NCBI GenBank assembly: GCA_965213685.1 | Contig: CBDBZY010000014.1 | Span: forward strand, 1 to 64,000 | DNA length: 64,000 nt | DNA from: a bacterium | GTDB taxonomy: Bacteria; UBA8248 | Reading direction: 5' to 3' | Shown here: in pieces, positions 19,809-20,049 of the stretch | Position numbering within the stretch: the first letter of the stretch is position 1 | Layout: each line of letters begins with the position of its first letter | Position numbers and translations under genes: made by a program | Notes under the pieces: model-generated | The model's database searches: none | Seen by the model: the letters and a program-made list of their open reading frames with translations, nothing else | What the model was told of the DNA's origin: nothing

Positions 19809-19842
19809 AAAAAAAACAGGCGGCGCCTCCCGACGCCGCCTG
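19809..19842 (-). terminator. Intrinsic terminator
   Basis: 9-bp stem CAGGCGGCG/CGCCGCCTG followed by T8 on the minus strand. Confidence 0.8.
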
Positions 19843-19895
19843 CGGTTTTCTCGAATTCCCCCGATGCGCCGTCTCAGGTCACACCGAGGGGCTGC

Positions 19896-19991
19896 TCAGG
19901 GTTTTTTCAGCACCCTCTTCCGGGAGTGCGCCGTTTTCAGGACCCTCCGGGGCGCAACTTCTCGGGCGGAAACCATCAATAGCATCGCCAT
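19896..19991 (-). CDS. Small basic ORF, 31 aa (MAMLLMVSAREVAPRRVLKTAHSRKRVLKKP); alternatively part of a structured sRNA
   Basis: AGGAGG RBS 6 nt before ATG; lies between a consensus promoter and a terminator; below the ORF-track size cutoff. Confidence 0.5.
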   Translation of the reverse strand: MAMLLMVSAREVAPRRVLKTAHSRKRVLKKP

Positions 19992-20020
19992 GACAGCCCT
20001 CCTATGAAGTTATGCAGGAG

Positions 20021-20049
20021 ATTTTAGCCGAGGCTCGGGGGCGTGTCAA
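20021..20049 (-). promoter_or_regulatory. Near-consensus sigma70 promoter
   Basis: TTGACA (20044-20049)-17 bp-TAAAAT (20021-20026), with an AT-rich UP-like tract upstream. Confidence 0.8.

Follow-up and report, generated by a model that had tools for sequence, protein, structure and literature searches.

Organization of the locus

The window analysed in this study, a 64,000-nt stretch of genomic DNA (positions 1 to 64,000 of contig CBDBZY010000014.1, assembly GCA_965213685.1) from a lineage of uncultured Nitrospinota, carries on its minus strand a short unit that extends from position 20049 down to position 19809. This unit comprises a putative promoter, a Shine-Dalgarno (SD) sequence, an open reading frame (ORF) of 31 codons for a strongly basic peptide, one predicted hairpin over the start of the ORF (H1), a second one behind its stop codon (H4) and an intrinsic terminator, and it converges on a cupin gene encoded in the opposite strand (Table 1). 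The comparative evidence set out below suggests that the unit is a small-protein gene with a structured mRNA.

The first-pass annotation of the window had described a TTGACA-17-TAAAAT promoter and an AGGAGG ribosome-binding site on the minus strand, and both were found at the places given. The promoter matches the consensus at 11 of 12 positions and is the sole promoter-like site between 18500 and 21500, a region in which shuffled sequences average 0.1 such sites. Transcription would start near 20013, both transcript ends being predicted. The basic ORF with an internal RRVLK/KRVLK repeat is likewise present. The terminator was placed correctly and does end in eight T residues, but its stem was found in a terminator scan to consist of 12 pairs, 9 of them G-C, rather than the 9 bp described earlier. 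Compensatory changes were seen at three of these pairs within the genus, and the scan picked up this stem-loop on the plus strand too, as a terminator for the convergent cupin gene.

Table 1. Positions in the window of the predicted elements of the small transcription unit and of the convergent gene
Feature	Position	Strand	Remarks
-35 hexamer TTGACA	20044..20049	-	short A-tract before it (20053-20057); identical in 20/20 genus loci
-10 hexamer TAAAAT	20021..20026	-	17-nt spacer from the -35 hexamer; relatives keep TAnnnT
Shine-Dalgarno sequence AGGAGG	19998..20003	-	6 nt upstream of the ATG at 19991
5' hairpin H1	19965..20002	-	SD and AUG paired with codons 5-9 (RNAalifold)
ORF, 31 codons and TGA	19896..19991	-	TGA at 19898-19896; encodes MAMLLMVSAREVAPRRVLKTAHSRKRVLKKP, net charge about +8
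Conserved C-terminal half, codons 15-31	19899..19949	-	two [RK][RK]VLKx[AP] repeats; includes motif units 2 and 3
3' untranslated region hairpin H4	19858..19890	-	begins 5 nt past the stop codon; loop UGAGAC; motif unit 4
Intrinsic terminator	19809..19843	-	stem 19843-19816, then T8
Cupin gene (Cupin_2, Pfam)	19302..19736	+	convergent; constant neighbour of the unit

Evidence for a protein-coding gene

Codons and RNA structure were compared over an alignment of 27 distinct sequences, four of which come from two other genera of the same family (g6 and g9), and the ratio of nonsynonymous to synonymous differences per site (pN/pS) was obtained from Nei-Gojobori counts over these sequences. Divergence per site and ORF length within the genus of the window (g1) were taken from 20 aligned loci. 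The ATG and the reading frame are kept in all 27 sequences, with a length of 31 to 35 amino acids (aa); the ORF is 31 aa long in every one of the 20 genus loci and 32 to 35 aa long in g9 and g6. The g6 and g9 homologs also retain the SD sequence, and their peptides end in ...RKRVLK[KNH]P(E/D/VTAP).

Variation within the ORF is greatest at third codon positions, where entropy in the 20 genus loci is 0.55 as compared to 0.33 and 0.25 at the other two positions, and where divergence within the genus is 0.262 per site as compared to 0.105 at second codon positions. The same Ser-Arg pair is written TCC CGG or TCG AGA, Val27 occurs with all four of its codons, and Leu28 is encoded by CTG in 9, by TTG in 6 and by CTC in 12 of the 27 sequences. 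For codons 15-31, pN/pS was 0.275 over the 27 sequences and 0.188 within the genus; the value for the whole ORF was 0.53. The two shifted sense frames gave values of 0.87 and 1.31 and contain stops in 27/27 and 11/27 sequences, respectively, and the three antisense frames gave 0.91, 0.63 and 1.49 and are interrupted in 3, 19 and 14 of the 27 sequences, respectively.

The conserved C-terminal half carries two basic repeats, R-R-V-L-K-T-A and K-R-V-L-K-K-P, and K25, R26, V27, L28, K29 and P31 were invariant in 21/21 sequences. R-to-K exchanges are found in the g6 and g9 homologs and alter second codon positions. The longest uncharged run in the peptide of the window is 9 residues, and the genus consensus has an R at position 3. 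With start, frame, stop, length and SD sequence conserved and with purifying selection acting on the amino acids, these data indicate that the ORF is a small-protein gene, and the small basic peptide suggested by the first-pass annotation is thus borne out as far as sequence analysis reaches.

A 59-aa ORF was also observed antisense to the small gene (window positions 19803-19982, plus strand). The matching frame lacks stops in 24 of 27 homologs and its pN/pS of 0.91 points to neutral evolution; this ORF is probably not a gene.

RNA structure and repeated motif

The 206-nt RNA was found to fold better than shuffled sequences (z = -2.74), and RNAalifold recovered two helices, H1 and H4, in the genus set as well as in the 27-sequence set. 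In H1, GGAGGGCUGUCA-U pairs with the early codons, 97.6% of the alignment cells are paired and three pairs are changed on both sides, as where C-G/U-A in the genus is replaced by U-A/C-G in g6 and g9; the predicted mean free energy of this helix is -14.3 kcal/mol and the mean probability that the SD sequence is paired is 0.73. In H4, the paired fraction of the cells is 97.8%, and changes on both sides affect 6 of the 12 pairs, in several cases within the genus itself. Its loop is U-G-N-N-A-C in 23/23 genus sequences, appearing as UGAAAC, UGAGAC, UGACAC, UGUAAC or UGGAAC.

The covariation score of the whole structure (H1 and H4 together) was 0.209, a value reached by 0 of 500 shuffles and compared to 0.03-0.07 for slid controls. 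The pattern of paired changes argues that H1 and H4 are under selection. The first-pass annotation had proposed weighing covariation against codon conservation; both signals were found, in the covariation score just given and in the low pN/pS of codons 15-31. A search of five genomes found H4 once in each of them, and a role of H4 as a repeated regulatory site was rejected on this ground. A match to a known RNA family such as 6S, which had been considered earlier, was sought as well, and no Rfam family reached the gathering threshold anywhere in the window; hits around the locus at E <= 10 were at chance level (best 19.1 bits against a threshold of 55, E 1.3-9).

Divergence along the unit follows these elements. 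Within the genus, the stretch from the SD sequence to the ATG shows 0.017 differences per site, H4 shows 0.087 and the terminator 0.088, as compared to 0.23-0.40 in the linkers, 0.40 in the promoter spacer and 0.63 in the sequence past the T-run. In the g6 locus (L057) and the g9 loci (L058-L060, L071) the 3' untranslated region (3'UTR) is about 130 nt longer, at about 200 nt in total, and contains additional predicted hairpins (for example a GGCCGGAUNNCCGGCC-like one) before it reaches a near-identical bidirectional terminator. The genus of the window appears to have a shortened version of the 3'UTR.

According to the first-pass annotation, the RNA is built from repeated units that carry a CUGARA/CGAGAA motif and, in several cases, display it in hairpin loops. 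All five instances of the motif are present (units 1 to 5, at 19958-19966, 19934-19940, 19904-19910, 19872-19877 and 19846-19854), and three CTGARA lie within 69 nt. Over both strands of the whole window, 41 occurrences were counted and 42.4 are expected; the motif is locally clustered and not enriched window-wide. The proposed architecture itself did not hold up in relatives. Units 2 and 3 turned out to be the two V-L-K codon runs of the peptide repeat, unit 4 forms the H4 loop, and units 1 and 5 fall in stretches that vary freely among relatives. In other genera unit 2 reads CUGACGA, CUCCGGG or CUCAAGG, and the H4 loop alone among the units keeps its CUG (23/23 genus sequences). As for the three hairpins described earlier, CGGUGUG..CGCAUCG is part of H4 and is supported by covariation, while the other two were not conserved: UGCGCC..GGCGCA forms 6/6 pairs in the window's own sequence only, with 37.7% of cells paired over the 27 sequences, and AGGGU..ACCCU shows no compensatory change, is 88.9% paired and is broken in distant homologs.

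Distribution among relatives

The unit is single-copy in its own assembly, which is 94% complete and consists of 71 contigs. BLASTN against the 22 other genomes of the genus matched some 194 nt of the unit, running from the SD sequence to the T-run, in 21 of them, with 69-80% identity and with flanks that could not be aligned; the 22nd genome (79% complete) gave just a 34-nt terminator-like match. When six-frame translations of 42 genomes of one Nitrospinota family, including that of the window, were searched with a peptide profile, full-length matches (positions 1-31, E <= 1.1e-13) were obtained in 26 genomes from three genera. These are the window's own genome, 21/22 of the other g1 genomes, 3/4 in g9 and 1/1 in g6, with one match per genome, and all remaining hits were partial (E >= 0.036). 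The conservation in relatives that the first-pass annotation had made a condition of its proposal is strong.

A first peptide profile, run on 51 genomes of the phylum, found nothing outside the one family. Two degenerate-pattern scans of one genome per species (185,579 species) returned 14 and 16 loci, all of them from metagenome-assembled genomes (MAGs) titled Nitrospinota, Nitrospinaceae, Tectomicrobia or simply 'bacterium'. The same pattern applied to JGI metagenomes found 7 contigs, two of which hold new variants and none of which comes from a new lineage. In the protein collections, one 31-aa relative was found among 1.84 billion representative proteins, the source annotation is at best 'hypothetical protein', and the best ESM Atlas score, 0.76, is under any useful level. 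The peptide motif was not found in a full-text literature search, and none of the records listed in a search on Nitrospinota and sponges bore on the locus. The unit most probably represents a new family of small-protein genes with a structured mRNA, conserved in one family of uncultured Nitrospinota.

The assembly that contains the window is larger than those of its relatives (7.97 Mb, as compared to 2.9-4.6 Mb in the 22 other genomes of the genus), with an estimated contamination of 3.7%. It may represent either a merged bin or a truly larger genome.

Gene neighbourhood

The cupin gene lies tail-to-tail with the small ORF in the g1 loci and in the g6 and g9 loci that were inspected, and an ortholog of it was found in 41/41 family genomes. 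On the other side, the unit is located 3' of a gene for an AtzD/TrzD-type ring-opening amidohydrolase in 19 of 20 genus loci, and this is not the case in g6 or g9. In the window, this AtzD/TrzD-type gene (20151-21257, minus strand) and an Amidohydro_1 gene (21334-22788, minus strand) are directly upstream on the same strand as the small gene, and no obvious terminator was seen between the AtzD/TrzD-type gene and the promoter of the small gene. Right after the stop codon of the AtzD-like gene there is a purine-rich run, GAGGAGGGGAGGGGAGGG (window positions 20110-20150, minus strand), for which the sole Rfam hit was Corio-PBP at chance level (E 1.3).

In g6 and g9 the unit instead adjoins a gene for a small membrane protein upstream and lies exactly between this gene and the cupin gene. 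The membrane protein matched no Pfam family, and a pattern search of the window for it did not find it. No ORF like that of the small gene was found beside the cupin gene in g7, g4, g8, g3 and g5 (7 loci) or in g2 (4 loci). In g7 (L095) and g2 (L103-L106), this membrane-protein gene, which is conserved and encodes about 110-150 aa, converges directly on the cupin gene, and its product ends in ...W[EHD]KY[LV]G... Since the unit is missing at the cupin locus in g2, g3, g4, g5, g7 and g8, it is either an ancestral gene of the family that was lost several times or a later insertion.

Interpretation and alternative explanations

Taken together, these observations make it very probable that the unit encodes a small protein that is translated from a structured mRNA. 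The near-consensus promoter would give strong transcription and H1 would throttle or gate the access of ribosomes to the SD sequence and the AUG, so that the output of peptide would be set post-transcriptionally. H4 together with the terminator may protect the 3' end or may offer a binding site. The peptide could use its two basic repeats to bind a polyanionic partner, most likely an RNA; this might be the ribosome or else the H4 hairpin of its own mRNA, which would make the gene autoregulatory. This nucleic-acid-binding step is put forward tentatively, as the part of the proposal that we would sooner expect to fail than to hold. A further extension, rather speculative, is that the micro-protein and the GNNA-capped hairpin form a self-contained ribonucleoprotein whose transcript is both messenger and functional RNA. 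In one version of this idea, the peptide would sit on its own mRNA and close an autoregulatory loop together with the SD-burying H1; in another, it would be a clade-specific accessory ribosomal or RNA-chaperone protein, with H4 mimicking its rRNA site.

Several points weigh against a translated small-protein gene. Transcription and translation of the gene are both predicted, and no sequencing run on record as RNA was found to contain the locus. Codons 2-14 show a pN/pS of 0.88, which is near neutral, and the contrast between the two halves therefore places the protein signal in about 17 residues at the C-terminus. Some synonymous sites do not vary in the genus, among them those of codon 20 (ACG) and of codons 25-26 (AAG AGG), which is consistent with an additional constraint at the RNA level. 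As every double change in H1 stems from the g6 and g9 sequences, four in all, the number of independent events is small, maybe one or two. No family can be assigned to the peptide because Pfam and NCBIfam (both at E <= 10) and PADLOC gave no match and because hits in PHROGs (best E 0.013, for 4/21 members) and in a PDB profile search (best E 0.49) were at chance level. Finally, an AlphaFold2 model built from 21 sequences was poor, with a predicted local distance difference test (pLDDT) score of 60 and with the conserved half modelled as coil.

Among the alternatives, the one that fares best, although we regard it as improbable, is that of a dual-function RNA, i.e., a peptide-coding transcript with a second activity as a regulator or protein-binding RNA, exerted by H4 and by other conserved single-stranded parts. 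The divergence of H4 is on par with that of second codon positions, its helix covaries and its loop is uniform throughout the genus; some invariant synonymous sites and the further hairpins of the long g6 and g9 3'UTR fit the same picture. The first-pass annotation had listed such a role among its options, and the conservation and covariation of H4 beyond any coding need do support that part of the idea, but no candidate for a regulatory target or a protein partner was found. In addition, a stabilising effect at the 3' end or an autoregulatory function would account for H4 as well, there is no second copy of it in the five genomes searched, and no Rfam family covers it.

A role as a regulatory mini-ORF, in which the act of translation matters and the peptide itself has no role, is very unlikely. 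C-terminal proline slows termination in Escherichia coli, and ribosomes pausing at ...KKP-stop could melt H4 and thereby control termination or read-through antisense to the cupin gene; in the genus the peptide does end in Pro-stop, only 5 nt separate the stop codon from H4, and the terminator faces the convergent gene. However, residues are conserved through R/K exchanges that alter the nucleotides, Pro-stop is not universal (the g9 peptide ends in PE or PD and that of g6 in TAP), the g6 and g9 terminator lies about 150-190 nt beyond H4, and there is no gene downstream on the same strand.

Slightly less probable again is a type I toxin-like mRNA, whose toxic peptide would be silenced by an SD-sequestering fold and an antisense RNA. 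The likeness is to the hok and fst mRNAs and lies in the predicted sequestration of SD sequence and AUG and in a small ORF set between a strong promoter and a bidirectional terminator. The peptide is very basic and has no hydrophobic stretch of transmembrane length, though, and the gene occurs once per genome and in synteny in three genera, with no second promoter-like site within 3 kb and no PADLOC family.

The least probable explanation is the one that the first-pass annotation had put forward on the model of CsrB, RsmZ and CrcZ, namely a sponge RNA whose CUGARA/CGAGAA loops sequester an RNA-binding protein while the ORF is incidental: the local cluster of motifs, the three motifs in predicted loops of the window's own sequence and the promoter and terminator framing a unit of small RNA (sRNA) size speak for it, but the codon-level pattern largely refutes it, as unit 3 varies synonymously at Leu28, unit 2 is altered in other genera, units 1 and 5 are not constrained, two of three hairpins do not hold up in relatives, purifying selection acts on the ORF, and CsrA (PF02599) has 0 matches in the 94%-complete genome, control genomes being positive, in addition to the lack of an Rfam match.

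Comparison with known systems and significance

As a gene whose small protein is translated from a structured mRNA, the unit would work most like small-protein mRNAs that double as structured RNAs, represented by SgrS/SgrT, RNAIII/delta-hemolysin (hld) and SR1/SR1P. In common with these, it would give a transcript of roughly 200 nt framed by a promoter and terminator of its own, encodes a peptide some 30 aa long and has an RNA structure conserved beyond coding need; however, there is no sequence or Rfam similarity to them and the peptide described here is far more basic. The peptide also resembles the tiny basic accessory ribosomal proteins bTHX, bS22 and bL37, as well as bL34 and bL36, in a size within the 24-45 aa range, its high Lys/Arg content, its strong promoter, its single gene copy and a C-terminal half that is predicted to be unstructured on its own. 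It differs from them in matching nothing in Pfam or NCBIfam at the threshold given above, in a PDB profile search that stays at chance level and in being present in only 26/42 family genomes, and bL34 and bL36 are encoded by their own genes elsewhere in the genome of the window. The possibility that the peptide is the C-terminal half of a split or missing bL34 was rejected, as the bL34 C-terminus is found at its own locus in a shifted frame. That bL34 gene (rpmH; contig C6, about 22420-22570, locus L102 421-565) looks frameshifted, with a Pfam match that covers profile positions 2-28 only and with the expected C-terminus, IIRRRRAKGRKRLSTSA-stop, in the +1 frame; either a single-base error of the assembly or a true frameshift could account for this.

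Other systems are less close. CsrB, RsmZ and CrcZ resemble the unit in their length (about 200 nt), in having a promoter and a terminator to themselves and in a short motif, which the sequence of the window itself shows several times; in contrast to these RNAs, the copies of the motif are not kept at the RNA level, purifying selection acts on the ORF, and neither a csrA gene nor an Rfam hit was found. In hok and fst/RNA I, a 5' fold occludes the SD sequence of a small ORF and the terminator is common to a convergent transcript, but the peptide of the present unit lacks hydrophobic character, its locus is syntenic, non-mobile and present once, and no antisense promoter was found in 18500-21500. 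By analogy only, the arginine-rich peptide of lambda N and the GNRA-like boxB hairpin recall the combination, in one transcript, of a short basic peptide motif and a hairpin with a GNNA-type loop; there is no sequence similarity to this pair and no antitermination context, and binding of the peptide to the hairpin is hypothetical here.

Genes as short as this one are routinely missed, and the present case illustrates that a short internal peptide repeat can mimic a 'repeat-loop sRNA', with codon-level comparison deciding between the two. The gene comes from a little-studied branch of uncultured Nitrospinota that includes MAGs from sponge metagenomes. If the peptide does bind RNA or the ribosome and controls its own synthesis by way of the two conserved hairpins, the unit would represent a compact new post-transcriptional module in these bacteria.

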